From NCBI GenBank assembly GCA_038087875.1, contig CM075991.1:14014001-14078000 (forward strand): 64,000 bases of DNA, read 5' to 3'. The notes under the pieces are model-generated. The model saw only the letters and a list, made by a program, of their open reading frames with translations. It was not told the origin of the DNA and made no database searches. This DNA comes from Malacoraja senta (lineage: Eukaryota). Positions 1 through 62,587 of the stretch are shown here, piece by piece. How positions within the stretch are numbered: the stretch's first letter is position 1; each line of letters starts with the position of its first letter. The position numbers and the translations under genes were made by a program.

Positions 1-280
1 TGAGGCAGCATCTATGGCACGAAGGACTTCTTCCAGTCTGATGAAGGGTCTCGAACCGAAATGTTGCCTATTTAATTCGCTCCATAGATGCTGCCTCACC
101 CGCTGAGTTTCTCCAGCATTTTTGTCTACCAGCTTTTTTAAGTTCAGTTCAATACATGATTACAATCGAGCCAAAAACATAATTTCGTTTGAACTTAGGT
201 TCAAATGACATAATAAAAATATCTTGTATCTTGTATCCGCAGTGTACCAATACATGATAAAGGAAATAACCTGAATAATA

Positions 281-584
281 TTTAGTTTAGAGATACAGTA
301 CGGAAACAGGCCCTTCGGCCCACCAGGTCCGCACCGACCAGCCATCCCCGCACATTAACACTATCCTACACACCCGCTAGGGACAATTGTTACATTTACC
401 AAGCCAATTCACCAACAAATCTGTACGTCTTTGGAGTGTGGTAAGAAACCGAAGATCTCAGAGTAAACCCACGCAGGTCACGGGGAGAATGTACAAACTC
501 TGTCCGGGCAATAGTCAGGATCGAACCCGGGTCTCTGGCGCTGCATTCGCTGTAAGGCAGCAACTCTGCTGCTGCGCCACCGTG
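281..584 (-). mobile_element. tRNA-derived V-SINE (HE1-like), full length
   Basis: On minus: tRNA-like head (CACGGTGGCGCAGCAGCAGAG...GGTTCGATCC), V-domain (GGAGTTTGTACATTCTCCCCGTG...CCACACTCCAAAGAC-like), CR1-type tail GGGCCGAAGGGCCTGTTTCC and (CTAAA)n end. Confidence 0.85.
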
Positions 585-1325
585 ACTGATTAGTGCAAGA
601 TAAAGCCAGTAACGTCCGGTCAAGCATAGTCCGAGGGACCCCAATGAGGTGGATGGAAGTTCATGACCGCTCTCTGTTTGTGGTAGGAGTGGGACAGTTC
701 AGTTGCCTGATAACAGCTGGGAAGAAACTGATCCCGGATTCTGGAGGTGTGCGTTAATGAAGGTTCCTGGAGATTGTGATCTTCACTCAGTGTAAGCGGC
801 ACAGCCATGGCCTAATCTCTCGGGGCGGCAGTGGAACAAGGTCACATTCCCAGCAGAGAGAACTGGCCAGCACATTGTCACATAGCAGCAAGTTGACGTG
901 AGAGGTCAGAGTCTCACGAATGAAACACTGCATCAGCAGATGCCAGGAATTATCCAGCTTCCTTCACAGAGAGGATGGTGCCGGCAAGTTGATTAGTTTT
1001 AGTTTAGTTTGGTTTAGTTTTAGTTTAATTTAGTTTGGTTCAGTGGGTCTTGATCCGAAACGTCATCCATTCCTTCTGTCCAGAGATGCTGCCTGTCCCG
1101 CTGAGTTAGTCCAGCATTCTGCCACTGTCTTTGGTGTAAACTAGCATCTGCAGTTCCTTCCTACACATTTAGTTTAGTTTAGTTTAGTTTAAAGTTACAG
1201 CATGGAAACAGGCCCTTCGGCCCACCAAGTCCATGCCGACCATCCACGAAGTCCACGCCCGTTCACATTAGTTCTGTGTTATCCCACTTTCTCATCCACT
1301 CCCTACACACTCGGGGCAATTTACA

Positions 1326-1534
1326 GACGCCCCAGGAACAGCTGGAGCAGAGGTGTCCAGACAGAAATGTCTGAGAGTGGGCTCAACTGGGGAGATCTCG
1401 CAAGAACTGCCAACACCCGAATGAGGTGGAGGACATTTGTCAATGGGCTCTGCTCCCTAGAGATGGACATTTGTCAATGGCCTCTGCTCCCTAGAGGAGC
1501 AAAGGGCTTAAGAAGAAGTAAGAAGAAGAAGAAA
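1326..1534 (+). mobile_element. RTE-clade LINE 3' end fragment
   Basis: Translates RRPRNSWSRGVQTEMSESGLNWGDLARTANTRMRWRTFVNGLCS, typical of an RTE ORF C-terminus; ends in a (GAA)n tail; internal ~33-bp tandem duplication. Confidence 0.65.
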
Positions 1535-1637
1535 GACGCTACAACGTTTTTGCCCGACTGAGGAGACTACCGGCAAGATGTGGCGACAAACTGGTCGCCT
1601 GTAGTTTGCTAATATATCGCCTAAGTGGGACAGGCCC
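1535..1637. mobile_element. Terminal fragment of a Harbinger-like MITE
   Basis: Ends in AAGTGGGACAGGCCC, the same TIR as the elements at 23928, 26885 and 31818. Confidence 0.55.
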
Positions 1638-2131: not shown

Positions 2132-3005
2132 AGCATTTGGTGCCTATCCTGGGTGTAAACCAGCATCTGCAGGTCCTTCTTGAACCATTGGCCCAATATC
2201 CCGTTCATGCTCCAGCTAGTTTAGTTTAACTTAGTTTAGAGATACAGTGTGGAAACTGGCCCTCCGACCCACCGAGTACCCACCAACCATCGATCTACCG
2301 TACACTAGTTCTATTTCCCACACACAAACACAAGACCCATGCCCACCCACCGTATTCAATCATTTGCAAATCACAAAGAGCTGGAGGACATCAACAGGTC
2401 AGGCAGCATCTGTGGAGGGAATGGGCAGAGGATGTTTCAGGTCTGAAGAAGAGTCCAGCCCAGTCTGACTGATTGTGTGGGAAGGAACTGCAGATGCTGG
2501 TTTACACCGAAAATGGACACAAAATGCAGGAGTAACTCAGCGGGTCAGACAGCATCTCTGGGGAGAAGGAATGTATATAATGGGTGACGTTTTGGGTCGA
2601 GACCCTTCTTCAGGCAAAGCTGGTAGGCTGAAAGTACAACCTCTTGTTGCAAGAAGATATGTTAAAGACTCGTCACTGCGAGATAGCTTGCATAAATGCC
2701 GAATCATTGGGCAGATGCAATAACATGAAGAAAGGCAGTGTTTGTCCTTTTCGAAGCCCAAGGGCTTAACATGTGATCGTGACTTGGCCGAAACACTCCG
2801 CACTTAGTATCACGTTACTGGTAGTTCTTTTTCACCTTGGATGTCAAATGAGATTTTGCTTTTAGTACTCCATTCGCACAGAATGCCATTTGGCCCATCA
2901 GAACTATGCTAGCCCCTAGAGAGCTATCCCATCAGTCCCATTCCCCCTATCGCCCTGCGACTCCACGCTCCCACTCCTTTGCCGCCCGCCTTTACTTTAC
3001 GACTA

Positions 3006-3990
3006 AGCTCAGCACGGGATCACCTCAAGGCTGCGTGCTCAGCCCCCTGCTGTACTCACTCTATACTCATGACTGCGTAGCCGGTCCAAGTGCGAACTCC
3101 ATCATCAAGTTTGCTGACGACACCACTGTTGTGGGACGTATCGCTGATGGTAGATGAGTCAGAGTATAGAGGTGAGATCGACCGTTTGACCAAATTGGGC
3201 CAGCACAATAACCTGGCTCTCAACACCAGCAAAACCAAGGAACTGATTGTGGACTTTGGAAGGGGTAGGATGGGGACCCATAGTCCCGTTTATATCAATG
3301 GGTCGATGGTGGAGAGGGTCAAGAGCTTCAAATTCCTGGGTGTGCACATCTCTGAAGATCTCTCCTGGTCCGAGAACACAGATGCAATTATAAAGAAAGC
3401 ACATCAGCGCCTCTACTTCCTGGGAAGATTATGGAGAGTCGGTTTGACAAGGAGGACTCTCTCGAACTTCTACAGGTGCACAGTAGAGAGCATGCTGACC
3501 GGTTGCATCGTGGCTTGGTTCGGCAACTTGAGCGCCCAGGAGCGGAAAAGAATACAAAAAGTAATAAACACTGCCCAGTCCATCATCGGCTCTGACCTCC
3601 CCACCATCGAGGGGATCTATCGCAGTCGCTGCCTCAAAAAGGCTGGCAGTATCATCAAGGACCCACACCATCCTGGCCCCACACTCATCTCCCTGCTACC
3701 TTCAGGTAGAAGGTACAGGAGCCTGAAGACTGCAACGTCCAGGTTCAGGAATAGCTACTTCCCCACAGCCATCAGGCTATTAAACTCAACCCAAACAAAA
3801 CTCTGAGCATTAATAGCCCATTGCACTTTATCTGTTTATTTATGTGTGTGTGTATATATTCATTGGTATATGGACACACTGAATGTTCTGTATTCAATGC
3901 CTACTATATTCTGTTGTGCTGAAGCAAAGCAAGAATTTCATTGTCCTATCTGGGACACATGATGATAAACTCTCTTGAATCTTGAATCTT
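3006..3990 (+). mobile_element. Rex1/Babar-clade LINE, 5'-truncated (RT C-terminal half plus 3' UTR)
   Basis: STGSPQGCVLSPLLYSLYTHDC...KFADDTTVVG, frameshift near 3150, then ORF 3090-3806 (KTKELIVDF, FKFLGVHI, LLPSGRRYRS); (CTTGAAT)n tail. Confidence 0.85.
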
Positions 3991-5345: not shown

Positions 5346-5477
5346 TACACACATCCTCTGCAGTCTCCAGTGCCTCCATTCACCTGCAGCGGCACTGGGT
5401 CATGTTGACCTGTATCGAGCTACTGGCATGGAGTCAACGTTCACCTTCAATAACCTTCCTGAAGCTTAGACTGAAAT

Positions 5478-5505
5478 CTGAAGAAGGGTCTCGACCCGAA
5501 ACGTC
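5478..5505 (+). ncRNA. Minimal type I hammerhead-ribozyme-like motif in a Penelope-derived terminal repeat
   Basis: CTGAAGA-A-GGGT(CTCG)ACCC-GAAA-CGTC: conserved core, stem II hairpin, palindromic ACGT stem III, GUC site. Confidence 0.65.
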
Positions 5506-6934
5506 ACCTATTCCTTCTCTCCGGAGATGCTGCCTGTCCCGCTGAGTTGCTCCAGCTTTTTGTGTCTGTACACCTTATGTTGGCTGGATTGTGATCATGT
5601 CTAGTCCTGCCGCTGACTGGTTAGCACGCAACAAAAACCTTTTCACTGCACGTGACAATATTAAACTAAACTAAAGATGGGGTTTTAAAATCTTTACTCC
5701 TTTGTTATTCCGATTCCCCGACAATTCAGTGGTCGGTTCAGAGTGCAGTTCACCGTCTCGCACCATCTCCAGGTCTCAGAGTGGGATGGTGTCGACCAAA
5801 TAGCCATCATCACGGCATCAAGCCTCAGCCTGCTACCTCAAACAAAGTGCCAAGTCAATGAGAGGATGTGGTATTGGGGCAGCACAGTGGCACAGCTGGT
5901 AGAGCCGCTGCCTCAGTGCCAGAGACCCAGGTTCGATCCTGACCTTGGGTGCTGCCTGTGTGGAGTTTGCACGTATCTCCCTGAGGAACTCATTGCCACA
6001 GACGGCTGTGGAGGCCAAGACATTGGGTATTTCGAAAGCGTAGATAGATATGTTCATGTTTAGTAAGGGGGGGGTCAAAGATTATGGGGAGAAGGCAGGA
6101 GAATGGGGTTGAGAGTGAAAAATAGATCAGCCGTGATCGATTGGCTTATCTATTGCCAATAGATCATGGCTACAGATGATCTATATACTTGATGGGCTGA
6201 ATGGCCTAATTCTGTTACCATATCTTATGGTCTTATGGATCACGTGGGTTTCCTATGGGTGCTCCGGTTTCCTCCCACATCCTGAAGACTAAAGTGGCTT
6301 CTATAACATTTCCCCATCAATGCATATGGCGCGGATAAGAAAGTGTGGTAACATAGAACTAGAGCAAATAGGCGATCGATGGTCAGCACGGACTCGATGG
6401 GCCAAAGGGCCCGTATCCACGCTGTTTCTCTCTAAAAAGAAAATCATCCCATCATACAGACACTGCAAATTTAGCACTTACTTCCCAAAACACACACACC
6501 CCTTCAATAAGCCAAGCGGAGCGAAGGAATGGGTGACGTTTCGGTCGAGACCCTTCTTCAGACGGTGGCGACCCAGAACGTCACCCATTCCTTCTCTCCA
6601 GAGAAGCTGCCTGTTCCTGCTGAGTTACTCCATCTTTTTGTGTCTATCTTCGGTTTAAACCAGCATCTGCAGTTCCTTCCCACACAATAAGTCAACCGGA
6701 CCCTGGTCTGAAGATGACCGAGTCCGGACTCTGACCTCCACTACATTGGCAAATAGTCACTAATGTGTACCATGTACCACTGGCCTGCGATGGTACAAAC
6801 TGTGCCCGATGATACTTTGTCATTGAAACATTTGCTGTGAAAGTATTTCTGTGTTGTAGTTCGCTCCCTCCACTGCACACTCCTTTGTTCTGTTCTGTTG
6901 CAACTTTCACCGAAGGCAGGACTTCCTATTGTGC

Positions 6935-7452
6935 ACGAAGGAAGTGCTGGTTTAAGCCAAAGATAGACACAAAAAGCTGGAGTAACTCAGCGGGTCAGAC
7001 AACATCTCTGGAGAAAAGGAATGGGTGACGTTTCGGGTCGAGACCCTTTTTCAGTCTGAGAGGATATCAGGGGAAAGGGAAACGAGATATACGATCTAGG
7101 TGAAAACAAGTTACAGACAATGAGACTCAACAAGACGACTTTGAAGTTGGTACCACACCCCTCCCCCGCCCAAGTCGTACCAACTTCAAAGTCGTCTTGT
7201 TCAGTCTCATTGTCTGTAACTCGTTTTCACCTAGCCCACATCTAACAATGGCCAGCTTCCTCTATCATCGTTTTACTTTTTTGCATATCTTTCATTCAGT
7301 GTTCTATATCTCTCTACATCACCATCTACATCTCTCCTTTCCCTTTCCCCTGACTCTCAGTCTGAAGGAGGGTCTCGACCCGAAACATCACCCACTCCTT
7401 CTCTCCAGAGATGCTGCCTGTCCCACTGAGTTACTCCAGCGTTTTGTGTCTA
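6935..7452. mobile_element. Penelope-derived non-autonomous repeat with inverted HHR-bearing arms
   Basis: Minus copy (~6935-7054) and plus copy (~7357-7452) of the Penelope 3' repeat flank an internal region. Confidence 0.6.
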
Positions 7453-7800
7453 TCAGAGGTTCCTATTAATTTCTCAGCTCAGTCGAAGCAAACCTATCGG
7501 CAGTGTATTTACAGCGAACCTTACTTACAACACCACACACCATTCTCTTGTAAAATACTTCAGCCGAGAATTAGATCCTTAAAGTGGGCTGTGCCAGTAA
7601 AGAGGTTAATGGCAAAATCGTTGGATTCAATGTCTCATCTCCCCAGTATCAAGAAGGCCCATGCAGTTAATAGAGGCCTTTCCCAGCTGCTATGGATGCT
7701 GGGACAGGCTGCCCTCCATAGAAACCATTCACTTCACTCTCCATAGAAACACTATAGTCCACATGCATGTGGGATAACAACTCTCACCAACTTCTACAGA

Positions 7801-9050: not shown

Positions 9051-9162
9051 TGTGTCTATATTCCATTTAAATCAGCATCTGCAGTTCCTTCATACACAAT
9101 GACATTCTTACTTGCAGCAGCATATGTCAACACAGTACACTGTAAACTAGAAACAATAGTTC

Positions 9163-9215
<53 letters not shown>

Positions 9216-9703
9216 TTCCTTGTTTCTACTGGACATTTAGTCAAGGTAAATAGATACATGTCGTTCACACACTCTATCCTGAGTCTATCTTTGGTCCAAC
9301 CCAACATCTGCAGTGCTTTGGTTCTATATTATTGATCAGTGATTGGCAATTAATCACAGCTCTCGCCGTCCTTAAATTAACAGAATGCACATAGAAACAA
9401 GATGCAGGAGCAGGCCACTCGGCCCTTCTAGCCAGCACCGCCATTCAATATGATCATGACTGATCATCCACAATCAGTACCCCGTTCCTGCTTTCTCCCC
9501 ATATCCCTTGATCCCGTTAGCCCCAAGAGCTAAATCTAACTCTGTTTTTTACACATAACTTTTTGTTTCCATTGATAATTGACAGTGTAAAACGCCGACG
9601 CACACTTGCAGGGAGATGTTTGTACCGTCTGGCAACATGCTCCAAGCAAAACACGGCTGCAATGTGCCGGCTCAAAGCAAGTTGCAGCAGTTTAGTAACT
9701 TAC

Positions 9704-10620: not shown

Positions 10621-11072
10621 TTGGAGTGAGAAATAAAGAGCAGAAGGCACTTGTTCCTCAAGGATTCTTGCAGCGCATTCCAGGGACCTTATTCTCCACC
10701 CCTTATGGGGACTGTCCACAGAATGAAATGCTGTGTTTCTGCTCTGGCCCTGGCTCCGCCTCGCTGTGTTCTTGGAGGCAGAGTCCCACAACCAGCTTGT
10801 TGCTGGGAAGAAAGGGACACACAGCCGAAGGTCGACACAAATATGCTGGAGTCACTCAGCGGGACAGGCAGCATCTCTGGGGAGGAGGAATGGGTGACGT
10901 TCCGGGTCGAGACCCTTCTTCAGACTGAGAGTCAGGGGAGAGGGAGACTAGAAAAAGTGCAAAGGACAAATGAATGAAAGAATCAACTCTGATCAAGGAA
11001 ATGTAGAGCCCACAATGGTCCATTGTTGGCTGTGGAGATGGTGATAATGAGTGGATACAAACTACTTCTACT

Positions 11073-11370
11073 AGGGCAGCACAGTGGTGCAGCGGTAGAC
11101 TTGCCTCAAAACGCCAGAGACCCTGGATCGATCCTGACTATGGGCGCTGTCTGTGTGGAGTTTGAACGTTTTCCCCATGACCTGCGTGGGTTTTCTCCGG
11201 GTGCTCCGGTTTCCTCCCACACTCCAAAGACGTACCGGTTTGTAGGCTAATTGGCTTGGCATAATTGTAAATTTTCCCTCGTGTGTGTAGGATAGCGTTA
11301 GTATGTGGGCATCGCTAGTCGGCACAGACTCGGTGGGCCGAAGGGCCTGTTCTCAACTAAATGAAACTAA
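11073..11370 (+). mobile_element. V-SINE (HE1-like)
   Basis: GGGCAGCACAGTGGTGCAGCGGTAG head, V-domain, GGGCCGAAGGGCCTGTT tail. Confidence 0.85.
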
Positions 11371-11452
11371 ATACAAACGGTGAAACTAAGCAGGATGACG
11401 AGGGTGGGATGGGGACGGAGAGAGTGGGAATGGAAGGGTCTAGCCTGCCCGC

Positions 11453-12036
11453 TGTGTGTGTGCATGCGCGTGTGTGTGTCTGTGTGAATGCGTGCGTGCA
11501 CATATGTGTGTGTGCGCATGTGTGTGCATCTGCCTATGTGTGTGCATGTGGCATGTGTAGGCATGCACATGTGCGTGCATACGTGTGTGCGTGTGTTTGC
11601 ATGCATGTACGCATGTGTGCGTGTATTTGCACGTGTGTGCGCATGTACATACGTGTGTGCATGTTTGCATGTGTGTGTGTGATCATGTGTGTGTGTGCAT
11701 GTATACATGCATGTGTGCGTGTTTGCATGTGTGTGCGTGTGTACATGCGTGTGTGCATATGTGTGTGCATGTGTGCACGTGTTTGCATTTGTGTGCACGT
11801 GTACATGTGTGTGCGCGTGCAAATGCATGGGGGCAAACATGTGTGCATACGTGTGGGCGTGTTTGCATGTGTGTGCGTGTGTGCGCAATTGCATGTGTGC
11901 GCGCGTGTACATGTGAGTGTGCATGTGTGTGTGCACGTGTACATGCGTGTGTGTGCGCGTGTACATGCGTGTGCACGTTTGCATGTGTGTGTGCGTGTAA
12001 TTGCGTGTGTGTGTGTGTGTGTGCATGTGTGTGCGT
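11453..12036. repeat. Degenerate (GT)/(GCAT) alternating purine-pyrimidine tract
   Basis: Directly visible; accounts for all the Cys/Val/His-rich ORFs here. Confidence 0.95.
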
Positions 12037-12120
12037 AGCTTCCTCCCATTGCCACTCTCCCTACCGCTGCTGCACTTCTGATGCCAACCATATTCAGTCC
12101 TTGCCTGTCACTGACATGGT

Positions 12121-12585
12121 CATAAGAGTTCATAAGTGATAGGAACAGAATTAGGCCATTCAGCCCATCAGATCTACTCCGCTATTCAATCATGACTGAT
12201 CTATCTCTCCTCAATCCCATTCTCCTGCCTTCTCCCCATAACCTCTGACACCCGTACTAATCAAGAATCTATCTATCTCTGCCTTAGAAATATCCACTGA
12301 CTTGGCCTCCACAGCCGTCTGTGGCAATGAATTTCACAGATTCACCACCTTCTGACTAAAGACATTTCTCCTCATCTCCTGCCTAAAAGAACGTCCTTTA
12401 ATTCTGAGGCTGTGACCTCTGGTCCTAGACTCTCCCACTAGTGGAAACATCCTCTCCTCATCCACTCTATCCAGGCCTTTCACTATTCTGTGAGTTTCAA
12501 TGAGGTCCCCCCCTCATTCTTCTGAACTCCAGCGAGTACAGGCCCAGTGCCGACAAATGCTCATCACCTACTCATTCCTGGGGTC
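12121..12585 (-). mobile_element. CR1 LINE 3' fragment
   Basis: CR1 ORF2 C-terminal and 3' UTR sequence on minus. Confidence 0.8.
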
Positions 12586-23222: not shown

Positions 23223-23257
<35 letters not shown>

Positions 23258-23927
23258 ATAGGAAGGAACTGCAGATGCTGGTTTAAATCGAAGATAGACA
23301 CAAAAAGCTGAAGTGACTCAGTGGGACAGGCAGCGAGAAGGAATGGGTGACGTTTCGGATCGAGACCCTTCTTCAGACCTTTAGACATACATATATGTTT
23401 GTGTTTATAAATATATCTGGGACACATGACAATAAAACACTCTTGACTTGTCTCTTGACTACATCAACATGACAATGTAGCAGATCAGTGCCAGACCCCA
23501 TGTGCAACCAAACAGTGAGTGCCATTTCACCTACGTAGACATGACAGAACTATGATTGATCATGGAATTGTCCTCTATTCATTACTGTAGTGAATAGGTT
23601 GAGACCTCCCAGAGACTTTGAGTGCTCTTTAAAACACTTCATTATCTCAACAGCTGAAAGATTGATATGTTTTTAATAAAGACACCATAACTCCAATGTA
23701 AAAGCCAACTGCCTCCCTTAACAGTGCTCCTCTGAGTGTGGGTTGTATCGGGAATGGGTCTGAAGGGAAGAGCTGGAGGTGTTTTTCAATCGCTTGCATT
23801 AGGAGTAAATCCAAATAGACACAAAAAGCTGGAGTAACTCAGCGGGACAGGCAGCATCTCTGGATAGAAGGAATGGGTGACGTTTCGGGTCGAGACCTTT
23901 CTTCAGACTGAGAGATTAAGGGACTCA

Positions 23928-25845: not shown

Positions 25846-26531
25846 TCTCTTGCAAGTGAAGGCTCCCCTGTCGGTGCAGTGTGACCCAGGACTGCACGAG
25901 TCATAGCCAAAAGTATGTGACCTTCTGAGTCCGCCACCATCCTGAAATCATCTGTAGCCTTTCCGCTGACTGGAGAGCATGCAACAAAAAGCTTTTCACT
26001 GTACCTCGGTACACATGACACCAAACAAATCAAAACAAAACTATTGATAATAGAAACGAAAATCTGGAGTGACTCAGTGGGACCGGCAGCATTTCTGGAG
26101 AAAACGGATTGGTGGCGTTTCGGGTCGAGACCCTTCTTCAGACTGAGAGTCCGGGGAAAGGGAAACGAGAGATATGGATGGTGAAATAGAGAGATATAGA
26201 ACAATGAATGAAGGATATGCAGACAAGATGACGATGATGAAGGAAACGGATGCGGGCTAGGTGAAAACGGGTTGCAGACAATGAAACTCACCAAGACGAC
26301 ATTGAAACTAATACAACGACTAGAGTGGGGGAGGGATGGAAGAGAGTGGGGATGCAAGCGTTACTTTAGTTAGAGAAATCAATATTCATACCATTGGGTT
26401 GCAAGCTGCCCAAACAAAATATGAGGTGCCCAAGCAAAAGCCAAACTAATCCTTCATTCTGCCCTTTGTACGATGCCTTTTCCCACTTCACTCTTTGTCA
26501 TGAAGGAGGTGAGCCACCATACAATATTCAA

Positions 26532-27117: not shown

Positions 27118-27900
27118 CCTTATTCTTTGGTGCGAAGTCCTACAGTCACTGATGTTCATGTAAAGGATTGAGAACTCTTAACCAAAAGGACACAAAGTGC
27201 TGGAGTAACTCAGCGGGTCAGGCAGCATCTCTGGAGAACATGGACAGGTGACATTTCGGGTCCAGACTACTTCTTTAGACGTTCACAGCTCAGAACCTAA
27301 AGTTATTGAAACTTTGGAATTCCCTGTTCCGGGAGAGTCGGAGCGGTGAGATCATCAGAAATATTTAAGGTGGAGATAGATAAATTCTAAAGATAGACAC
27401 AAAATGCTGGAGTAACTCAGCGGGACAGGCAGCATCTCTGGGGAGAAGGAATGGGTGACGTTTCGGGTCCAGACCTTTCTTCAGGCTCCTAGGTCAACCC
27501 TGCACCATCTCTGGCCACAAGTATGTGACCGTGTGAAGTCACCACTCTCCTCCTGGAAGTTTAGGAGTACGTTTCAGACTGGAACAAGTCGGGAAACAGA
27601 GGCCTGCCTTTGGCTTCCTGAGAGGAAATGACTTTCAGATCCACGCAAGCGATTGATTTCAGGGGATAAAAAAAAGTAGCCACGTCTGTGTGGAGAGAGG
27701 TCTCTCTCTCTCTCTCTCTCTCTCACTCTCACTCTCTCTTTCTCTCTTTCTCTCTCTCTCAGACGCAAGCTCTGGGCTAAGATTCACTCCCTCGCCGCTG
27801 TTCTCTCTGGTCCCAGCCTCCTGACCCCCATCACACCAGCAGCGTTGCACAGGCCGGGTCGGGGACCGGCGTAATAGTGGGACACCCCTAAGTGGCAATG

Positions 27901-28307: not shown

Positions 28308-29169
28308 GTAAGTAAGCCGGCTGTTGGGATCAAACCAGCAGTGGACTTGCAAAAAACAAAACTAACTGGATTCTGGATTAGATGCAAATGCTGTGCAATT
28401 GTTGCATTCATGTTTTAAGGGGTTCTCCCTTTATTATGGGGTTTGCAGAGTATCTGTGGTCCTGCTGCAAGTGAGAATGTCATTGAAGATTGCAGACACA
28501 AAGTGCTGGAGTAACTCAGTGGGTCAGGCAGCATAGAAACATAGACCTAGAAACGTGGTGAATAGGTGCAGGAGTAGGCCATTCGGCCCTTCGAGCCAGC
28601 ACGGCGCCATTCAATCCAAAATCAGTACCCCGTTCCTGCTTTCTCCCCCATATCCATTGATTCCGTTAGCCCTAAGAGCTAAAGAAAGAACTGCAGATGC
28701 TGGAAAATCGAAGGTACACAAAAATGCTGGAGAAACTCAGCGGGTTCCGGAGAGAGGAGGAGAACTTCTTCATAGTATTCCGGAGAGAGGAGGAGAACTT
28801 CTTCAAAGTTCTATATAACTCTATCTAACTCTCTCTTGAAAGCATCCAGAAAATTGGCCTCCTGAGGCAGAGAATTCCACATGTTCACAACTTTCTGGGT
28901 GAAAAAGAGCTATATGCGTGCACAGCCCGAAGTTGTAAGACAACTTGTTCTGTTTGATCTTCTGTTTGTGCACGCCAGGTTGATTGCATTCGTCGAAACA
29001 GGGTGGACCACGTGAAGGTTGCAATCTCCCATCCCAGAAGCATCTCTGGAGAGAAGGAATAGGTGAGGTTTGGGTTGAGACCCTACTTCTGTGTCTTCTA
29101 TTCCTATTCCTTCCCTCGAGAGATGCTGCCTGTCCCACTGAGTTACTCCAGCATTTTGTGTCTATCTTC

Positions 29170-30940: not shown

Positions 30941-31150
30941 GCCCTCTAGATATCTATTCAAGAGAGAGTTAGATATAGCTCTTAGGGCTAACGGAATCAA
31001 GGGATATGGGAAGAAAGCAGGAACGGGGTACTGATTTTGGATGATCAGCCATGATCATATTGACTGGCGGTGCTGGCTGGAAGAGCCAAATGGCCTACTC
31101 CTGCACCTATTGTCTATGTTTCTATATTTAGAGAGAGTCAAGAGTCAAGA

Positions 31151-31334
31151 GTAGACAAAAATGCTGGAGAAACTCAGCGGGTGAGGCAGCATCTATGGAG
31201 CGAAGGAATAGGTGACGTTTCGGGTCGAGACCCTTCTTCAGTCTGAAGAAGGGTTTCGGCCCGAAACATTGCCTATTTCCTTCGCTCCATAGATGCTGCT
31301 GCACCCGCTGAGTTTCTCCAACAATTTTGTCTAC
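31151..31334. repeat. Imperfect ~184-bp palindrome made of two head-to-head Penelope-derived repeats with HHR cores (31214-31241 minus, 31243-31270 plus)
   Basis: ...GACGTTTCGGGTCGAGACCCTTCTTCAG-T-CTGAAGAAGGGTTTCGGCCCGAAACATT...; arms extend to GTAGACAAAA / TTTTGTCTAC. Confidence 0.85.
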
Positions 31335-31817
31335 CTTCGATTTTCCAGCATCTGCAGTTCCTTCTTAAACAAGTCAAGAGTGTTTTATTGTCATATGTCC
31401 CAGATGGGACAATGAAATTCTTACTTGCTGCAGCACAACAGAATATGTGAAGATGTAAACATTGTATATAATGGGGGAAGAGGAAAACAATAAAAAAGTT
31501 CAATGTAACACATGTAGTGATACAGATGAGCTCAGAAATACTATATTTGAAGATTTTCTGTCGTGCAGCTGGCAAAATGTCGCCTCAGGTAGGCGCCCTT
31601 AGATATACTTGTATACCCTGTAAAATGTTGTGCACGTGAATGAAAGGTGAAGGGGGGAATGGCGGGCAGCAATAGCCGGTCTTAATAGAAACTGACAGAA
31701 GGAGTCAGTAATCTAATGTTGGAGAATTCATCATTGAATGTGGAAAGGTGTCATGTACCTAGGTGGAAGATGAGGTGCTGTAACTCGAGATTGCACTGGG
31801 CTTGATTGTGAACCTCA

Positions 31818-32052: not shown

Positions 32053-32799
32053 TAAGGAGGCCACGGGGAGAGGGATCAGGGTGGGAGCGTGATGGGGGTT
32101 TAAAGTGAGAAGCAACAGGAAGCTGAGGGTCACTTCCGCTCTGCATGACGATCGGCCGGTCTGCACTCGGTTCCTCTTCTCGTGTGAAGGAGGCTACGTG
32201 GTAAACACCGAGTGAAGTACAGTAGTTTGGAAGAAGATCAAGAACCGCAGCCTTACCTGGAAAGGCCAAGGATGGTGGGAAGGGAAGAGGTGAAGGGACA
32301 GGTGTGGCACCTCCAGCAGTTGCAAGAAGTGTTACAGGGGGAGGTCAGAAGTGGCGGGAGAGGTCAGAAGTGCGGACCATGAAGTTACAAAAACATGTGT
32401 CGGAAGGAACTGCAAATGCTGGTTTATACCCAAGATAGACACAAAATGCTGGAGTAACTCAGCGGGCCAGACAGGTTCTCTGGGGAGAAGCAATGGGTGA
32501 TGTTTCGGGGCAAGACCCTTCATCAGACTGAAGACATCAGACTCAAGAAACTCCACCGTCGTCAGAAGCATTGGAAGTCTCATTCTGATGAAGGGTCTCA
32601 ATGCGAAGCGTCACCTATTCCTATGGGTGGGTTTTCTCCGGGAGCTCCCGTTTCCTCCCACACTCCAAAGATGTACAGGTTTGTAGGCTAATTGGCTTGG
32701 TATAATTGTATCAAAAATTGTCCCTAGTGTGTGTAGGATAGTGTTAATTGGTGTAAAAAAATTGGTGTTAAAAAGTGTAAATTGCCCTGTGTGTGTAAG

Positions 32800-33660: not shown

Positions 33661-33991
33661 GTACAGGTGATCATTGGTTGGCACGGACTTGTGATGTTTC
33701 TGTGATGTATCTCTAACCTAAACTCCGTCTGAAGAAGGGTCTCGACCCAAAACGTCACCTATTCCTTCGCTCCATAGATGCTGCCTCACCCGCTGAGTTT
33801 CTCCAGCATTTTTGTCTACCTAAACAAAAGCATGATTGTTTCCAATTACTGAAAAGGGGATTGGGAGGGAAATGGGAGCCCTGGTAGAGGTGGTGATGGA
33901 TTAGCCTTCAGGTGATATTTGGCAGCAAGTCCCAGACCTTAGTCCCTGCAACAATGAAGGAAGATACAACTTGGAGAGAAACCTTGGAGGG

Positions 33992-37231: not shown

Positions 37232-38193
37232 TAAAGAGGATAGGGTGTGTTTGGAATGAGCTGCCAGAGGCTGGTACAATTATAATGTTTACAAGACAAC
37301 ATTGATGGAACGGAAAGATTTGGAGAGACACGGGCCAAATGTGGGCGACTGGGACTTTCTCAAGTAGACTCCTTGGTCAGCATGGACGAGTTGGGCCGAA
37401 GGGCCTGTTCTGTGCTGTATAAGGCGAGACTCCATGCACAATATTCATTGTCGTTGCTTATTGCCCCTGAAGTGAGGGGGCAAATGGCCATACACCATGT
37501 TGGTGGGTCTGGACCCACAAAGTCATGGACTCCTCGAGCTTGGACCAGCACCTCCACACCTATCATTTCCATCAAACTGTGTAGGAAGGAACTGCAGGTG
37601 CTGGTTTAAAACTGAAGATAGACACAAAATACTGGAGTAACTGACCGGGTCAGGCAGCATCTCTGGAGAGAAAGAATGGTTGACGATTCATTTCGAGACC
37701 CTTCTTCAGTCTGATATAATAGTAAGATTAAACGAGAACTTACCAGTTTGAAGTTTGATCTGTATTTTATGAGGAGTTACGATGAGGGATTACGTGAAGA
37801 GCCCGTCAAAGCAGCGGTGTGGAATCACAGGAAACGCAATAATTGAAATAAACATAGTAAAGAAAAGGAGAACTAAGATACCAGTTGATCTATAATCGAG
37901 GGTGGGAGCGGAGGGCACGTAATCCCTCATCGTAACTCCTCATAAAATACAGATTAAACTTCAAACTGGTAAGTTCTCGTTTAATCTTACTATTTTACTT
38001 CGGAGTCACGTGAGTGATACGTGAAGATTTTAAAGCTCTGTGATTTCAAACCGTGTAACAGTTCATACTTCACTCGCTGCCGAAGTCATTCAAGGGGGGA
38101 AGTATGTTATCGTAATCAACCATGAATCTGTTTGTAAACAATAATTGTATTTATTAAACAATAACAAAAGAAAAATGCTCCCCCGGGCTTAAA

Positions 38194-42503: not shown

Positions 42504-42604
42504 GCGTGCTGGACGGGCTCTTCACGTAGTCACTCACGTGACTCCGAAGTAAAATAAAACAATAATACATCTAAACCGAAATACCCTTCCTATACCCTTG
42601 GACC

Positions 42605-43610: not shown

Positions 43611-43818
43611 TCATTGGTTGACCAATGCAGCCCAACCAAAGCTTTAAACAGGTCGGGGTTCAACCCTGACTTCCAGTGCTGTCCGTGTGGAGTTTGCACC
43701 TTCTCCCTGTGACAGTGTGGGTTTCCTCCGGGTGCTCCAGTTTCCTCCCACATCCCAAAGACGTGCAGGCTAGTAGGTTCATTGACCTTTGTAAATGTCC
43801 CCCCGTGCTGGAAGAAGT

Positions 43819-43846
43819 CTGAAGAAGGGTCTCGACCCGAAACGTC
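43819..43846 (+). ncRNA. Minimal hammerhead-ribozyme-like motif
   Basis: CTGAAGAAGGGTCTCGACCCGAAACGTC, identical to 5478-5505. Confidence 0.65.
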
Positions 43847-44272
43847 ACCCGTTCCTTCTCTCCAGAGACGCTGCCTGTCCCGCTGAGTTACTCCAGCTTT
43901 TTGTGTCTATCTTCGGTTTAAACCAGCATCTGCAGTTCCTTCCTACACATTAAGTACGGTATTATCTGGTCTGGTTGGGGAGCCTTCAACAACGTTTTTC
44001 ACTGTACTTTAGTAGGTGTCAATATTAAACATGAAGTTAAACCTAAAGCTGTGATGAAACAGCAGGCCGTGGTCAACCCCAGCTTATGTTAATAACATAG
44101 CTTCCTGTACAGGCTCAGAAACAACAGCTGGGTGGAAACCCTGCCACAAAAACCATCTGAAAGAACCCAAACGAACAAAGGAATTAAACGAGAACATTCT
44201 GTGCTCAATAAGTCACGTTGTTCCGGCTGAGAAGCCAAGAGCACATTCCTTTAAATGTCACAAACACTTCCA

Positions 44273-47472: not shown

Positions 47473-48019
47473 CCCGAAACATCACCAATGCCTTTTCGCC
47501 AGGGATGCTGCCTGACCTGCTGAATAGCTCCAGCATTTTGCGTCTATCTTCGGTGTAAACCAGCATCTGCAGTTCCTTCCTGCCCTATAAGTCCTATAGA
47601 TAGACACAGAAAGCTGGAGTGACTCAGCGGGTCAGATAGCATCTCTGGAGAAAAGGAATAGGTGACGTTTCGGGTTGAGAACCTTCTTCAGACCTTCAGT
47701 TCCTTCCGACACTTCAAGTCCGGTGTTTGGTGACTACTTCTTCCTGCAGTCTCTAGATGGCAGTATCGCTCCACAGCATCCTGGTCACCATCCCACACTG
47801 CAAGCCTCCTGGACCAGCAGTCATTGGAAACACAGTGGAGAATGCCACTTGTGATGCTGGGGAATATTGACCAGCCTATCCCATGCAACTGAGAACCACT
47901 GCAAACCACTCATCAAATCTCCTTGCTACATCAAAGAACCTTTATTGAGCCATGTATCGCAAGGCAGAATGCAGCACTCTCTCAAGATTAGTTTAATATG
48001 ATCATGGCTGATCATCCAT

Positions 48020-49931
48020 GCACCCTTCATCAAAAACTGCCGCCGTGACATCAACCGCCTCAACCTCTCCACTCCCCTGTCTCACTCCAATCTCTCCCCC
48101 CCTGAACGCACTGCCATCGACTCACTCCACAACAACCTAGATTGGGTTATCAAACCCGCCGACAAGGGAGGTGCCGTGGTAGTCTGGTGCGTCGATCTCT
48201 ACAAAGCTGAGGCCACGCGCCAACTCTCGGACACCTCCTCCTACTTACCCCTGGACCATGACCCCACTGACGAGCACCAGGCCACCATCTCCAGCACCAT
48301 CACCGACTTCATCCACTCCCACGCCCTGCCCGACCGAGCCTCCAACCTCATCGTTCCCCAGCCCCGCACAGCCCGCTTTTACCTTCTCCCCAAAATCCAC
48401 AAACCTGACTGTCCCAGTAGACCCATTGTCTCTGCCTGTTCGTGCCCCACCGAACTCATCTCCACCTACCTCGACTCCATACTATCCCCCTTGGTTAAAT
48501 CCCTCCCTACCTATGTTCAAGACACCTCAGACACTCTCCGTCGTCTCCGCGCATTCCACTCTCTAGGCCCTCACCCCCTCATCTTCACCATGGACGTCCA
48601 GTCATTGTACACCTCCATCCCTCACCAGGATGGTCTCGAAGCCCTCCGTTTTTTCCTCGACCGTAGAAGCAATCTATACCCGGCCACTGACACCCTCCTC
48701 CGCCTAGCGGAGCTGGTCCTTACCCTCAATAACTTCTCATTTGACTCCTCCCATTTCCTCCAAATACAAGGCGTAGCTATGGGCACACGCATGGGCCCCA
48801 GCTACGCCTGCCTCTTTGTCGGGTACGTAGAACAATCCTTGTTCAATGCGTACCAGGGCCCCATCCCCGACCTCTACCTCCGCTACATCGATGATTGTTT
48901 TGGTGCCACATCCTGCACCCACACACAACTGACTGACTTCATCCGCTTCACCACCAACTTCCATCCGGCACTCAAATACACCTGGACCATTTCCAACACT
49001 TCCCTACCATTCCTTGACCTCACTATCTCCATCGCAGGTGATAGACTTCTTACCGACATCCACTACAAACCTACCGACTCCCATGGCTATCTGGACTACA
49101 CTTCTTCCCAACCTGCTTCCTGTAAGGACTCCATCCCCCACTCCCAATTCCTCCGTCTACGCCGCATCTGCTCCCAGGATGAGGCGTTCCACACCAGGGC
49201 ATCCGAAATGTCCTCATTCTTCAGGGAACGGGGGTTCCCCTCCTCCACCATAGATGAGGCTCGCACCAGGGTCTCTGCAATACCCCGCAACACTGCTCTC
49301 TCTCCCCATCCCCCCACTCACAACAAGGGCAGAGTCCCCCTAGTCCTCACCTTTCACCCCACCAGCCGTCACATACAACAAGTGATCCTCCGTCAGTTTC
49401 GCCACCTCCAACGTGACCCCACCACTCGCCACATCTTCCCATCTCCCCCCATGTCTGCCTTCCGCAAAGACCGCTCCCTCCGTAACTCCCTTGTCAATTC
49501 TTCCCTTCCCTCCCGTACCACCCCCTCCCCGGGTACTTTCCCTTGCAACCGCAAGAGATGCAACACTTGTCCCTTCACCTCCCCCCTCGACTCCATTCAA
49601 GGACCCAAGCAGTCATTCCAGGTGCGACAGAGGTTCACCTGCATCTCCTCCAACCTCATCTATTGCGTCCGCTGCTCTAGATGCCAGCTGATCTACATCG
49701 GTGAGACCAAGCGGAGGTTTGGCGATCGTTTCGCCGATAACCAACCAACCTGACCTCCCGGTGGCTCAGCACTTCAACTCCCCCTCCCATTCCGTATCTG
49801 ACCTCTCTGTCCTGGGTCTCCTCCATGGCCACAGCGAGCAACACCTGAAATTGGAGGAAATGCACCTCATATTCCGCTTGGGCAGTCTACATCCTGGGGG
49901 CTTGAACATTGAATTCTCCCAATTCTGCTAG
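48020..49931 (+). pseudogene. Penelope RT/GIY-YIG ORF, frameshifted near 49737 (21-bp deletion plus 4-bp insertion relative to the 61738 copy)
   Basis: ORF 48176-49753 continues in another frame to 49931 (PVAQHFN...GLNIEFSQFC). Confidence 0.85.
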
Positions 49932-50135
49932 CCCTTGCTGTCCCCTCCCCTTCATCAGCCCTCTGGTTGTCTCCTCCCCTCCCCCAGCCCTCGGGCTCCT
50001 CCTCAGCCTTTTTTCCTTTCTTCTCCCCACCCCCTATCAGTCTGAAGAAGGGTTTTGGCCCGAAACGTTGCCTATTTCCTTCGCTCCATAGATGCTGCTG
50101 CACCCGCTGAGTTTCTCCAGCACTTTTGTGTACCA
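48020..50135 (+). mobile_element. Penelope-like element, 5'-truncated (RT plus GIY-YIG), with an HHR-bearing 3' repeat
   Basis: IKPADKGGAVV, LPKIHK..PSRPIVS, TMDVQSLYTSIP, GVAMG, RYIDD, LPFLD, YKPTD; CNRKRCNTC; YCVRCSRCQLIYIGET; HHR-like core at 50042-50069. Confidence 0.93.
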
Positions 50136-50178
50136 TTAGTTTAGTTTAGTTTAGTTTAGTTTAGTTTAGTTTAATGTC

Positions 50179-50262
<84 letters not shown>

Positions 50263-53675: not shown

Positions 53676-54574
53676 CAAATGAAAAGATGGTTTACATCAG
53701 TCTATTTGCAAATGAATCCATGTGGCTGGCCAAACACCTATTAATGCAGGCTGAAACTCTTTGATATTAGTACTTCAAAGTGAGATAAATGATTTGTGTG
53801 TGGGAAGAGCTTACTTGCTCCTCTTCGTACCAAGAAGATCACTCCAGAGTCAAGAGTGCTTTATTGAACAAAAATGGAATCATTAAATTCTTACTTGCAG
53901 CAACACAACATGTCAATAGGTCAATAGGTAACACAATTACAAAATATATTTTACCGTTCAATTAATAAAAAATAAAAAAACAGCGCAAAACAAATAGCCC
54001 GAAGTCTAGAAAGTAGAAACAAGGACCTGCGGACACTGGTTCTACACAAAAGGATACAAAGTGCTGGAGTTACTCAGAAGGTCAGGCAGCATCTGTGGAG
54101 AAGATAGACACAAAATGCTGGAGTAACTCAGCAGAACAGGCAGCATCTCTGGATAGAAGGAATGGGTGATGTTTCGGGTCGGGACCCTTCTTCAGACGGA
54201 GAGACGGGGGAGAGGGGGGCATAGAGATAAGGAAGGGTAAGGTGTGAAAATGAGACATCAAGGAAAAAGTAGAATAGATCATTGTCAGCTCGGAGAAGGT
54301 GGCAACAAAGCAAAGAGAGGTACAACTCTGGAGACCACGGAGGGGCAACGTTTCAGGTTGGGAACCTTCTTCAGACTGATTGTTTGGAGGGGGGGGGGGT
54401 TGGAGGAAAGGTGGGACAGGAGAGGCGGATACAGGCGAGGGGGGGGGGGGGGAGTAGATAGGCCAATGGTTTGAACAACGGCCAGAGATTAAAACAGAAG
54501 CCTTAAGTCCCAAGTACAACTAAGGTAGTTCGCAGTTCACAGTTCAGTTGGAGTTCGTAGGGTTCAATCGCCTG

Positions 54575-54774
54575 NNNNNNNNNNNNNNNNNNNNNNNNNN
54601 NNNNNNNNNNNNNNNNNNNNNNNNNNNNNNNNNNNNNNNNNNNNNNNNNNNNNNNNNNNNNNNNNNNNNNNNNNNNNNNNNNNNNNNNNNNNNNNNNNNN
54701 NNNNNNNNNNNNNNNNNNNNNNNNNNNNNNNNNNNNNNNNNNNNNNNNNNNNNNNNNNNNNNNNNNNNNNNNNN
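54575..54774. other. Assembly gap (200 N)
   Basis: Run of N. Confidence 1.
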
Positions 54775-56785: not shown

Positions 56786-57995
56786 CTCCTGCACCCCATG
56801 GAACAAGGTCCTAGCCTGGTCCAACCTCTCCCCACAGTCCATGCCCATTCATCCCTGGCAAATATCCTTGTAAATCTTCACTCTTGTCAGCTTAAAGACA
56901 TCCTTCCAAGAGCAGGGTGACCAAAACTAAACACAATACTTCAAGACAGACACAAAGTGCCTGAGTTACTCCAGCTCTTTGCGTCCTTTTTTGCAAACCA
57001 GCATCTGCAGTTCCTTGTATTAACATTGGTCAGGTGTGGGTTGATGCCCCTAAAGCCGTGCTACAGTATCTACTGATACCAGGGTGTGCTGCTGGGGACT
57101 CCACTGTTACATCATCAGTCTTTCTCCTCTGGACCACCACACCGGGTCACATGCAGAGCTCTCCCGAAGCCACAACTCTCATTCCACCTCCACCATCAAC
57201 TTGTACACTTCTACAAGATCACCCCTCATCCTCCTGCGCTCCACGGAATAAAGTCCCAGCCTATCTCTCCCCATAGTCCATGCCCTTCAGCCCTTGCAAC
57301 ATCCTCGTAAATCTTCCCTTCACTCTTTTCAGCTTAAAGACATCCTTCCTGTCGCAGGGTGGATGAAAGCTGAACACAATACTTCTGGACAGACACAAAG
57401 CGCTGGTGTAACTCAGCGGGACAGGCAGCATTTCTGGACAGAAGGAATGGGTGACTTTTCAGGTCGAGACCCTTCTTCAGAACGAAACGTCACCCATTCC
57501 TTTTCTCCAGAGATGCTGCCTGCCCCACTGAGTTATTTCAGCACTTAGTGTCTATCTTCGGTTTAACCAGCATCTACAGTTCCTTCCTAAACAATACATC
57601 AGGTGCAGCCTCACCAACTGGTTTAGTTTAGTTTAGTTTAGAGATACAGCGCGGAAACAGGCTATTCGGCCCACCGAGTCCGCACCAACCAGAGAAACCT
57701 GCACACTAACGCTATCCTACACACATTAGGGACAATTTACAACTATTACAAGCCAATTAACCTACAAACCTGTACGTCTCTGCGATAAAGGTCACTTTTT
57801 AATGCAGACAATAACACAAAGGGTTGAAGATAAACCATGCCAATTTTTACTCAATTCGTCATGAAGGAGTGGCAGGGACTAGTACAGAGAGTATACCAAT
57901 ATACTCAGTGCTCCCCGAGCAGCCACTCAAAGATACAATGTTTCACAATTTCTTATATACAATTAAAGTCAAGTAAATGCCTTAGTTATTCTTCC

Positions 57996-61200: not shown

Positions 61201-61594
61201 GATCATTACTTGGTTAAAATTCTACTCATAGCTGGCAGAAGGGCCAATACAAGAAACTGCAGCGGACACACCCAGACCTAGACAATGGCTAGACATAGTA
61301 CAGGAAATATTTGTCATGGAGAAATGACATATTCTCTAAGAGTGAAAGAAGACGAGTTTAACAGAAAATGGGAAAAATGGATTAGGTATAAATATAGACA
61401 TCAACACTATAATTTTATTGACAATAATGTAAGTTTTAATATGAAAATAGTTCTGTATACTGCATGATTAATTGTAAACTGAACCCGACGCTGCACTGTT
61501 GTACGTTTCACTGCATTGTTGTATGTTTCGTTGTTATATTTGTGTTTTATTTGTGTATGCATAAAAGCAATAAAGACTAAAGTGAAAAAAAAAA
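58275..61594 (+). mobile_element. L1-clade LINE, 5'-truncated, decayed ORF2
   Basis: [74 protein letters not shown]...HIFWSC zinc knuckle; AATAAA at 61569 and poly(A). Confidence 0.9.
58401..58795. mobile_element. Non-autonomous DNA transposon (P- or hAT-like) inserted in L1
   Basis: ~34-bp TIR CAAAGATCCTATAGCG(G)AGCAAGAT..CCACTC; 8-bp TSD ACACAAAC/ACGCAAAC; the L1 frame RRHK|QQAG is restored on removal. Confidence 0.8.
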
Positions 61595-61737
61595 CTACTG
61601 CCGAGGAGTATTTCCAAGAAACAATTGTTGACATCGGTTTCAGTGACTGTTATCTTATCTTCAGAGGAGCAGTGATCTATGTACATCAGTCCGGTCAACT
61701 GTCGATCTGTACTTTGCTTATCCCAGGCATAGTCTGT

Positions 61738-62587
61738 CCTCACCTTTCACCCCACCAGCCGTCACATACAACAAGTGATCCTCCGTCAGTTTCGCCACCT
61801 CCAACGTGACCCCACCACTCGCCACATCTTCCCATCTCCCCCCATGTCTGCCTTCCGCAAAGACCGCTCCCTCCGTAACTCCCTTGTCAATTCTTCCCTT
61901 CCCTACCATACCACCCCCTCCCCTGGTACTTTCCCTTGCAACCGCAAGAGATGCAACACTTGTCCCTTCACCTCCCCCCTCGACTCCATTCAAGGACCCA
62001 AGCAGTCGTTCCAGGTGCGACAGAGGTTCACCTGCATCTCCTCCAACCTCATCTATTGCATTCGCTGCTCTAGATGTCAGCTGATCTACATCGGTGAGAC
62101 CAAGCGGAGGCTTGGCGATCGTTTCGCCGAACACCTCCGGTCGGTCCGCAATAACCAACCTGACCTCCCGGTGGCTCAGCACTTCAACTCCCCCTCCCAT
62201 TCCGTATCTGACCTTGCTGTCCTGGGTCCCGTCCATGGCCACAGCGAGCAACAGCATAAATTGGAGGAAATGCACCTCATATTCCGCTTGGGCAGTCTAC
62301 ATCCTGGGGGCTTGAACATTGAATTCTCCCAATTCTGCTAGCCCTTGCTGTCCCCTCCCCTTCATCAGCCCTCTGGTTGTCTCCTCCCCTCCCCCAGCCC
62401 TCGGGCTCCTCCTCCGCCTTTTTCCTTTTTTCCTTTCTTCCCCCCACCCCCTATCAGTCTGAAGAAGGGTTTCGGCCTGAAACGTTGCCTATTTCCTTCG
62501 CTCCATAGATGCTGCTGCACCCGCTGAGTTTCTCCAGCATTTTTGTGTACCTTCGATTTTCCAGCATCTGCAGTTCCTTCTTTAACA
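61738..62587 (+). mobile_element. Penelope-like 3' fragment (GIY-YIG plus HHR-bearing terminal repeat) with a 10-bp TSD
   Basis: ORF 61775-62341 has an intact GIY-YIG (YCIRCSRCQLIYIGETKRRLGDRFAEH); TSD CATAGTCTGT at 61728-37 and 62588-97; near identical to 49345-50135. Confidence 0.92.

Follow-up and report, generated by a model that had tools for sequence, protein, structure and literature searches.

Is a short repeat that carries the boxes of a hammerhead ribozyme a mobile family of its own, or is it the recurring end of a larger element? The question is raised by a stretch of 64,000 nucleotides (nt) from Malacoraja senta (NCBI GenBank assembly GCA_038087875.1, contig CM075991.1, positions 14,014,001 to 14,078,000 of the forward strand), referred to here as the window, in which such a repeat recurs throughout and also stands at the end of two copies of a Penelope-like element (PLE). 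A first-pass annotation of the window, made from the letters alone, had proposed that the ribozyme-bearing terminus had amplified as a solo family resembling retrozymes or short interspersed elements (SINEs). The motif repeat is confirmed as real and far above chance. It is very probably the pseudo-long terminal repeat (pLTR) end cassette of PLEs, whose ordinary insertion is likely to have left the solo copies as short by-products, with no separate SINE or retrozyme family involved.

A repeat shared with Penelope-like elements

In the window, the pattern CTGAWGA-N(8-18)-GAAAC was matched 17 times against an expectation of 0.25 (100 shuffles, the largest count being 2). Two of the 17 matches (32528 on the plus strand and 61637 on the minus strand) fall in unrelated sequence. 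A hidden Markov model (HMM) of the repeat, employed together with a blastn self-comparison, revealed 45 copies in the window, and all 21 sites named by the first-pass annotation, from 38 to 62459, fall on one of the HMM copies. The hammerhead boxes (CTGA, GA, GAAA, U16.1 and H17) are intact in 16 of the 45, the hammerhead part is mutated in 14, mostly at CpG sites, and it is absent from the 15 that are 5′-truncated.

PLE copies that have an open reading frame (ORF) for a reverse transcriptase (RT) and a GIY-YIG endonuclease carry the motif in sense orientation. The first PLE copy of the window has a 583-amino-acid (aa) open frame with the RT (48002..49753, plus strand; Pfam RVT_1, E 1.5e-6). 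This frame is 5′-truncated and covers aa 611-1182 of a 1250-aa ORF at 97% (tblastn). The copy is 97% identical to many genomic copies, with 75 scored genomic matches at 96-100%. Its 3′ pLTR cassette (50041..50144, plus strand) has the hammerhead motif at the 5′ edge and a short 3′ end, which is directly adjoined by (TTAGT)n and (GTTA)n microsatellites at 50137-50260. The second PLE copy is a C-terminal part with the GIY-YIG endonuclease motif (61733..62341, plus strand; Pfam GIY-YIG, E 2e-4), which corresponds to aa 1050-1250 of the full ORF at 95% (tblastn) and is followed by a 3′ pLTR cassette with the hammerhead motif and a long 3′ end, or tail (62458..62585, plus strand). The same repeat is therefore found at the end of both Penelope copies, at 50041 and 62458, as the first-pass annotation had stated.

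What that annotation had described as a 3′ terminus is, in full-length elements, a direct repeat at both ends. Three full-length copies (L013, L014 and L016) have a frame of 1224-1302 aa that is flanked by the motif, 127 nt away on the upstream side and 120 nt on the downstream side, and the period of the unit is ~4 kb. Alignment of the two ends showed that the terminal direct repeat covers the cassette to ~97 or ~130 plus a variable upstream stretch, which reaches from −27 to +130 in L013 and more than 200 nt upstream in L014 and L016. The terminal repeat is thus a pLTR formed by a 5′-truncated upstream copy. Nearly the same cassette also follows PLE C-termini with an aa identity of only 57-77%, so it is common to several PLE lineages.

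The abundance of the cassette was estimated from 80 arbitrarily chosen 10-kb stretches (800 kb), which make up 864 kb together with the window; copies were identified with the HMM. Patterns were also counted in the whole source genome (1.94 Gb), with the reversed pattern as control. For the commonest form, the genome contains 13,276 exact matches to the 31-mer versus 0 for the reversed control, and CTGANGA-N13-GAAACGT, taken to represent intact-box motifs, is matched 103,137 times against 35. The HMM found 399 copies in the 864 kb, 354 of them in the 800-kb random sample, where the density is 0.44 copies/kb and 4.16% of the bases are covered. Extrapolated to the genome, this amounts to roughly 0.86 million copies, ~4% of the genome or about one copy per 2 kb.

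T-CTGAAGA-A-GGGT(CTCG)ACCC-GAAA-C-G-T-C opens the unit, which extends for a further 70-100 nt; the hammerhead-like core thus lies at the 5′ edge of the unit and not in its middle. The 3′ ends are bimodal, at model positions 97-105 in 123 of the 399 copies and at 124-131 in 144, ~30 nt apart, which bears out the 100-130 bp given earlier for the repeat (measured unit, 97-105 or 124-131 nt). At the other end, 225 of the 399 copies begin at model position 1-3. Homology is lost within 12 nt upstream in 173 of the 221 edge-starting copies that could be assessed, lengths that a mis-registered control also reaches by chance, while the other 48 run on for at least 17 nt into PLE-type sequence. Arithmetic on the copy-end counts gives a termination of ~10% per nt at the 5′ edge versus ~0.6% per nt inside the cassette, a difference of ~16 times. 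Contigs of four public runs, which do not mark RNA ends, depart from the element at the same three edges, ~−5 to −1, ~+95 and ~+130; none of the runs listed for the element is recorded as RNA.

Clustering of 143 near-complete copies gave lineage A (63 copies), lineage B (25) and lineage C (4), the other 51 falling in smaller clusters or singletons. Both PLEs of the window belong to lineage B, the youngest. The flanks of the copies are slightly richer in AT than the sample (59% versus 56%) and, as the excess is only slight, no target preference is claimed.

Hammerhead character of the cassette edge

Apart from the length of helix I, every published sequence trait that is specific to the minimal type I hammerhead of the PLE kind was found in the motif, and the class assigned in the first-pass annotation stands in this respect. 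The layout is CUGAAGA, one unpaired A, a 4-bp stem II with a tetraloop, GAAA, the palindrome ACGU for stem III, and H17. Within GAAA-C-G-U-H, ACGU is self-complementary and leaves no loop, and two copies could pair through it. The core, C3-U4-G5-A6-N7-G8-A9, G12-A13-A14 and the U16.1-H17 triplet, is present in lineages A, B and C, and 75 of the 135 sampled copies that are gap-free in columns 1-32 keep its boxes. Among 147 distinct copies, columns 19 and 31 (10.1-11.1) form a G-C pair in 101 and a G-U pair in 28. In helix I only U2.1-A/G1.1 and G2.2-C1.2 can pair, and 79.9% of the cells are paired. Two reservations made earlier, an extra A between A9 and stem II and a stem I of about 2 bp, proved to be right. 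A hammerhead of this layout would be expected to cleave after GUC/GUU only as a dimer or with the help of protein.

Minimal hammerheads in the flanking repeats of metazoan PLEs were reported by Cervera and de la Pena (2014, PMC4209133). According to the available part of that paper, they share with the present motif the CUGANGA and GAAA boxes, G10.1-C11.1, the palindromic 15.2-16.2 without loop 3 and a predicted action as dimers. The motif lies in both flanking repeats there as here, most copies are dispersed and single (ascribed in that work to truncated PLEs), and opposite-strand pairs occur in both. The same part of the paper gives a helix I of 4-5 bp in most families, compared with 2 bp here and in the D. 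virilis variant, a helix II of 6-8 bp versus 4 bp here, and an extreme sequence variability where that of the present motif is low. The 103,137 intact-box motifs of M. senta compare with ~4,000 in coelacanth and ~9,000 in Xenopus in that source, which is an order of magnitude more, the descriptors being different.

Several results weigh against a working ribozyme. The Rfam hammerhead families (type I, II, III, HH9 and HH10) gave no match at gathering score or at E ≤ 10 over the 64 kb, and a 101-nt stretch that includes a perfect copy drew none from the hammerhead models at E ≤ 10; we read this miss as reflecting the demand of the models for helices I and III, and not a missing minimal motif. 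Stem I has only 2 bp and stem III is unable to form within one molecule. In the minimum-energy fold, stem II is not formed and GAAGAAGGGU pairs with the sequence that directly follows the cut, and neither thermodynamic folding nor co-folding of two copies yielded the hammerhead. Among the 147 distinct copies, the hammerhead stems are paired in 86.8% of cells versus 87.0% after shuffling, with 4 double-change cells versus 5.9, in a test that has little power because genomic copies decay neutrally. The core is no better kept than cassette positions 44-57 and 62-80, the whole cassette being conserved. Covariance-model search, covariation and excess conservation of the core had been suggested in the first-pass annotation as checks on the ribozyme, and all three came out negative. 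Its statement that stem II varies while its pairing is kept survives only in a weak form: lineages A and B differ by U-A versus U.G, a one-sided change, and pairing and double changes remain at or below the shuffled controls. Furthermore, copy 5′ ends show no excess at the predicted cut over neighbouring positions. With only 7 of 399 copies starting at model positions 28-33, cleaved RNAs are not a visible source of the copies.

The sequence immediately downstream of the predicted cut, ACCCAUUCCUUC, is complementary to GAAGAAGGGU, which belongs to the core and stem II. The competing hairpin comprises model positions 5-13 and 30-42 (e.g. window 43822-43859) and is paired in 88.4% of cells. It shows no covariation beyond shuffles either.

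It is conceivable, although we would not favour it, that the hammerhead-like boxes are a non-working ribozyme, kept as a protein-binding, RT-entry or promoter part, and that their likeness was inherited from ancestral PLE hammerheads. The equal conservation of the whole 97-nt cassette, which extends across PLE lineages with proteins that are 25-40% different, fits this explanation, as do the missing covariation, the 2-bp stem I with its competing fold and the lack of a pile-up of copy ends at the cut site. Experimental work on PAc, the Poseidon PLE of Anolis carolinensis, points in the same direction. The hammerhead of PAc is protein-assisted and dispensable for insertion in vitro, hammerhead mutants left insertion in vitro unaffected, and the cut was not an end point of any RNA-seq reads (Frangieh et al. 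2024, PMC11167929), with which the lack of a cut-site pile-up in the present copies agrees. A promoter role finds a parallel in D. virilis Penelope, for which the available part of PMC2377424 describes an internal promoter and an intron next to the corresponding region, and an ACGT-containing downstream element near it. Nevertheless, the Anolis hammerhead does cleave with protein present (PMC11167929), and two features of the cassette speak weakly for a ribozyme. Within the first 30 nt, lineages A and B differ only at loop 2, in the change of a U-A to a U.G pair, at H17 and at position 1.1, all of which a hammerhead tolerates, and variability within the core is greatest at N7, in keeping with the hammerhead model.

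A permuted or type III hammerhead that cuts at the 5′ edge was also considered and rejected on sequence, which leaves no space for helix I and offers nothing upstream that would complement helix III.

Origin of the solo copies

The arrangement of the copies relative to each other was examined in the sample. Neighbours at a gap of ≤30 bp are head-to-head in 67 cases, tail-to-tail in 6 and on the same strand in 15. On the head-to-head count, fold-back pairs, in which the tails point outward, account for about one third of all copies. As a rule, one arm begins at position 1-5 and the other is cut at a variable point. The window contains a fold-back pair at 31146..31369 (minus arm 31241-31146, plus arm 31242-31369) in which each arm begins at cassette position 1-2 and the boxes are intact in both. 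Further head-to-head pairs were found at 57385..57591 (full minus arm 57481-57385, plus arm from cassette position 19), at 6518..6684 (minus arm 6562-6518, corresponding to positions 1-46, and plus arm 6564-6684 from position 11) and at 29035..29169 (minus arm with positions 4-59, plus arm with positions 31-97). A longer head-to-head pair at 6939..7461 comprises cassettes at 6939-7054 (minus) and 7361-7461 (plus), with PLE-type upstream sequences that face each other.

In 8 of 76 head-to-head pairs with a gap of ≤150 bp, the shorter arm begins at model positions 42-49. CAGA at these positions could pair with the complementary DNA end of positions 1-4 (UCUG), and it may be a snap-back site. One fold-back arm in the sample (L094:2258-2527, minus strand) carries a threefold tandem of a 49-nt cassette piece (approximately positions 11-60), in which GAAAC-GTC is present without the CUGANGA box. 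It is the sole array seen.

A flanking direct repeat of at least 8 nt was found for 18 of 141 solo copies, compared with 5 of 699 shuffled pairings. Because they are flanked by such repeats, the solo copies are considered complete insertion events and not rearranged fragments of long elements. In 5 of the 18 cases, no more than 2 nt separate the flanking repeat from the first cassette base, and in others 4-20 extra bases lie between. In the window, a solo cassette with mutated G12 (33728..33823, plus strand) has an 8-nt target site duplication (TSD), ACCTAAAC, 4 nt from its 5′ edge. Taken together, two fixed 3′ ends, fold-back pairs and TSDs are the architecture of ordinary PLE insertions.

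This architecture has close counterparts in elements described before. In PAc, the RT has two adjacent internal start sites, which follow the hammerhead at a distance of ~90 nt and explain the optional tail of 30-40 bp (PMC11167929). The present cassette likewise has two adjacent 3′ ends downstream of the hammerhead with a tail of ~30 nt. It is a hammerhead-bearing pLTR like that of PAc, whose hammerhead lies at the pLTR/ORF junction, and the fold-back pairs agree with the strand-symmetric cleavage and extension observed for PAc in vitro (PMC11167929). The two elements differ in that the ORF of PAc starts inside stem II and its RT starts lie inside the ORF, whereas here both 3′ ends are upstream of the first ATG of the long frame. 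Endonuclease-bearing (EN+) PLEs, as described in the available part of Craig et al. (2021, PMC8557442), also show high 5′ truncation, partial tandems that form pLTRs, an adjacent inverted 5′-truncated copy, a tail of 30-40 bp and insertions beside microsatellites. Two features of the present cassette, the sharp accumulation of 5′ ends where the hammerhead begins and the fold-back share of ~1/3, do not appear in that part of the account. Every main feature of the cassette is already published for PLEs, as far as the accessible portions of these sources extend (PMC4209133, PMC8557442, PMC11167929, PMC2377424). Simple repeats also adjoin other cassettes of the window, e.g. at 1036 and 23257, which fits the known microsatellite bias of PLEs.

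By analogy with the Anolis element, the PLE reverse transcriptase would bind the cassette RNA and start copying at either of two internal sites, and the two starts would give rise to the short end and to the end with the 30-nt 'tail'. Copying would then proceed to a discrete RNA 5′ end at the hammerhead edge. It could take place from one or both of the nicked DNA strands and, where both are used, a fold-back pair would result. The RNA 5′ end might be that of a processed or protein-protected fragment, or it might be a start site, for which TCAGTCT, both initiator-like and 3′-splice-site-like, is the candidate. This last source is weakened by the long copies. Seven of them, from the B family, extend as far as the 5′ cassette, and their starts lie at −27, at −267 or no closer than −299, in no case at the edge; another 7 are cut at +285 to +348. 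A protein-protected or processed fragment is a possible source.

The second set of long copies deserves a description of its own. Seven of 14 long B-family PLE copies (L015, L097-L099 and L102-L104) are 5′-truncated within a 64-nt zone. Counted from the cassette start, this zone spans +285 to +348; it lies inside the start of the long frame and forms a further hot spot for 5′ ends.

Three points count against this explanation of the repeat. First, a transcription start at the edge fails to explain the full-length templates, because none of the seven long copies begins there. Second, the shared upstream bases fall off step by step (77% have G at −1, 67% A at −2, 55% C at −3 and 54% T at −4), so the 5′ ends are ragged within ~4 nt. 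Third, the scores of RVT_1 (aa 734-903, E 6.7e-6) and GIY-YIG (aa 1154-1187, E 1.5e-3) in the full-length frame of 1250 aa are both below Pfam's own cut-offs.

A bolder proposition, which we put forward with little confidence, is that the cassette, 100-135 nt in length, would act as a self-contained mini-replicon. Its template would be a discrete short RNA whose 5′ end coincides with that of the hammerhead and is processed at the polypyrimidine-CAG|U junction, and the Penelope enzyme would copy it from two fixed internal starts onto one or both strands of the target. If this were true, ~0.86 million copies, ~4% of a vertebrate-sized genome, would have been made in such a way, and the position of the hammerhead would mark the 5′ boundary of a preferred template and not a cleavage site used in transposition.

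The solo family of the first-pass annotation would be independent and non-autonomous, SINE- or retrozyme-like, with its own transcription and mobilised in trans by PLE proteins. Its claim that solo cassettes far outnumber their parent is upheld by the counts. The 800-kb sample has 354 cassettes but only 30 loci where the PLE frame has left any trace, and the RT core is present in 4 of these, which gives an excess of ~12:1 over ORF-bearing fragments and ~90:1 over RT-bearing ones. This excess, the discrete 5′ edge with the initiator-like TCAGTCT, the TSDs of some copies and the available part of a preprint that derives animal retrozymes from PLE pLTRs (10.64898/2026.07.22.740005) speak in favour of an independent family. 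However, solo and ORF-attached cassettes fall in the same lineages with equal divergence. The median divergence at non-CpG sites is 10.3% for solo (n=111) and 10.2% for attached copies (n=32) of lineage A, and 4.1% (n=10) and 2.9% (n=8), respectively, for lineage B. A separate lineage is not supported by these values. Moreover, a solo copy is without the sequence upstream of the edge that full-length templates include. As for a SINE, the copies begin directly with the hammerhead motif, ARAGORN found 0 tRNA genes in the window, and no tRNA, 7SL or 5S matches were listed in the Rfam search of the window. As for a retrozyme, animal non-LTR retrozymes are likewise non-coding, hammerhead-bearing and related to PLE pLTRs, according to the available parts of Cervera and de la Pena (2020, PMC7229834) and of a preprint by Li, Clavereau and Pollet (2026). 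The retrozymes of these sources are nevertheless tandem arrays, with units bounded by two hammerheads and circular RNAs, whereas the present units are single or inverted, with 15 same-strand versus 67 head-to-head neighbours. Since there is no tRNA-like head and tandem arrays, the hallmark of retrozymes, are rare, neither label fits, and we regard an independent family as improbable.

That the 5′ edge is a 3′ splice site, with solos derived from spliced or exon-trapped RNAs, is very doubtful: a polypyrimidine tract, a CTGAC branch-like motif and CAG adjoin the first base in every lineage, ~1/3 of the solo copies start exactly after CAG (an estimate from base frequencies) and the D. virilis Penelope intron ends at helix I in the available part of Cervera 2014 (PMC4209133), but the 173 solo copies have no common upstream exon, many of them keep 1-10 nt of the would-be intron end (ATCAG, ACATCAG), and TSDs abut the edge in 5 cases. 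An RNA polymerase III unit, for which a B-box-like stem II and a T5 run at approximately positions 80-85 were considered, was ruled out because the 3′ ends lie beyond the T run.

With the cassette understood as the pLTR end of PLEs, what is new from the genome of M. senta is the scale and the clean quantitative picture. The genome provides an unusually large and clean natural data set on PLE insertion, a mechanism that is poorly known. Hammerhead cleavage has left no footprint in the copies, which bears on the question of what the hammerheads of PLEs are for. For annotation, ~4% of the genome and ~100,000 'hammerhead' matches are to be taken as PLE end stubs and not as independent ribozyme genes.

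Other cassettes and elements of the window

The remaining cassettes of the window illustrate the range of states described above. On the plus strand, two solo cassettes of lineage A have intact boxes, one with a long end (43818..43947) and one with a short end (5477..5573). A further plus-strand cassette with intact boxes in the CTGATGA variant (37..135) is preceded by an inverted partial arm. Solo cassettes with intact boxes on the minus strand were found at 23257..23377, with a long end that adjoins a (CA)(TA)n repeat, at 23806..23907, at 27386..27484 and at 47565..47692, the last with the stem II variant GGTTCTCAACCC. Three more minus-strand solo cassettes have long ends: at 2476..2613 with mutated G12 (AAAAC), at 32398..32527 in the CTGATGA variant, accompanied by a short inverted arm at 32584-32622, and at 37580..37709 with a decayed core.

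Three minus-strand cassettes run on into PLE-type upstream sequence. The one at 10825..10924 retains 24 nt of it and has a mutated GAAA box, that at 26045..26142 retains at least 79 nt and has a mutated U16.1, and that at 54100..54196 retains 65 nt and has intact boxes. A partial minus-strand cassette of a different lineage (54323..54375, positions 1-53) also has intact boxes. An assembly gap of 200 N at 54575-54774 lies beside a cluster of cassette copies.

The window also contains elements of other kinds. An intact-looking frame of 989 aa on the minus strand (17538-20507), with an apurinic/apyrimidinic (AP) endonuclease and a reverse transcriptase, represents a long interspersed element of the APE+RT type that is unrelated to Penelope. 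Within 38194-42521, also on the minus strand, a 330-aa frame has tyrosine-recombinase (Phage_integrase) and SAM-like N-terminal matches, and long frames lie upstream of it at 39165-39962, 39974-40585 and 41118-42521; together they may form a DIRS- or Crypton-like element. Simple repeats rich in TA and TG/CA at 9159-9217 and 11360-12180 gave rise to spurious sub-threshold Rfam microRNA matches (mir-297 and others). Finally, a 241-aa frame on the plus strand (3081-3806) has a Pfam ALKBH8_N match with an E of 3.6e-10.

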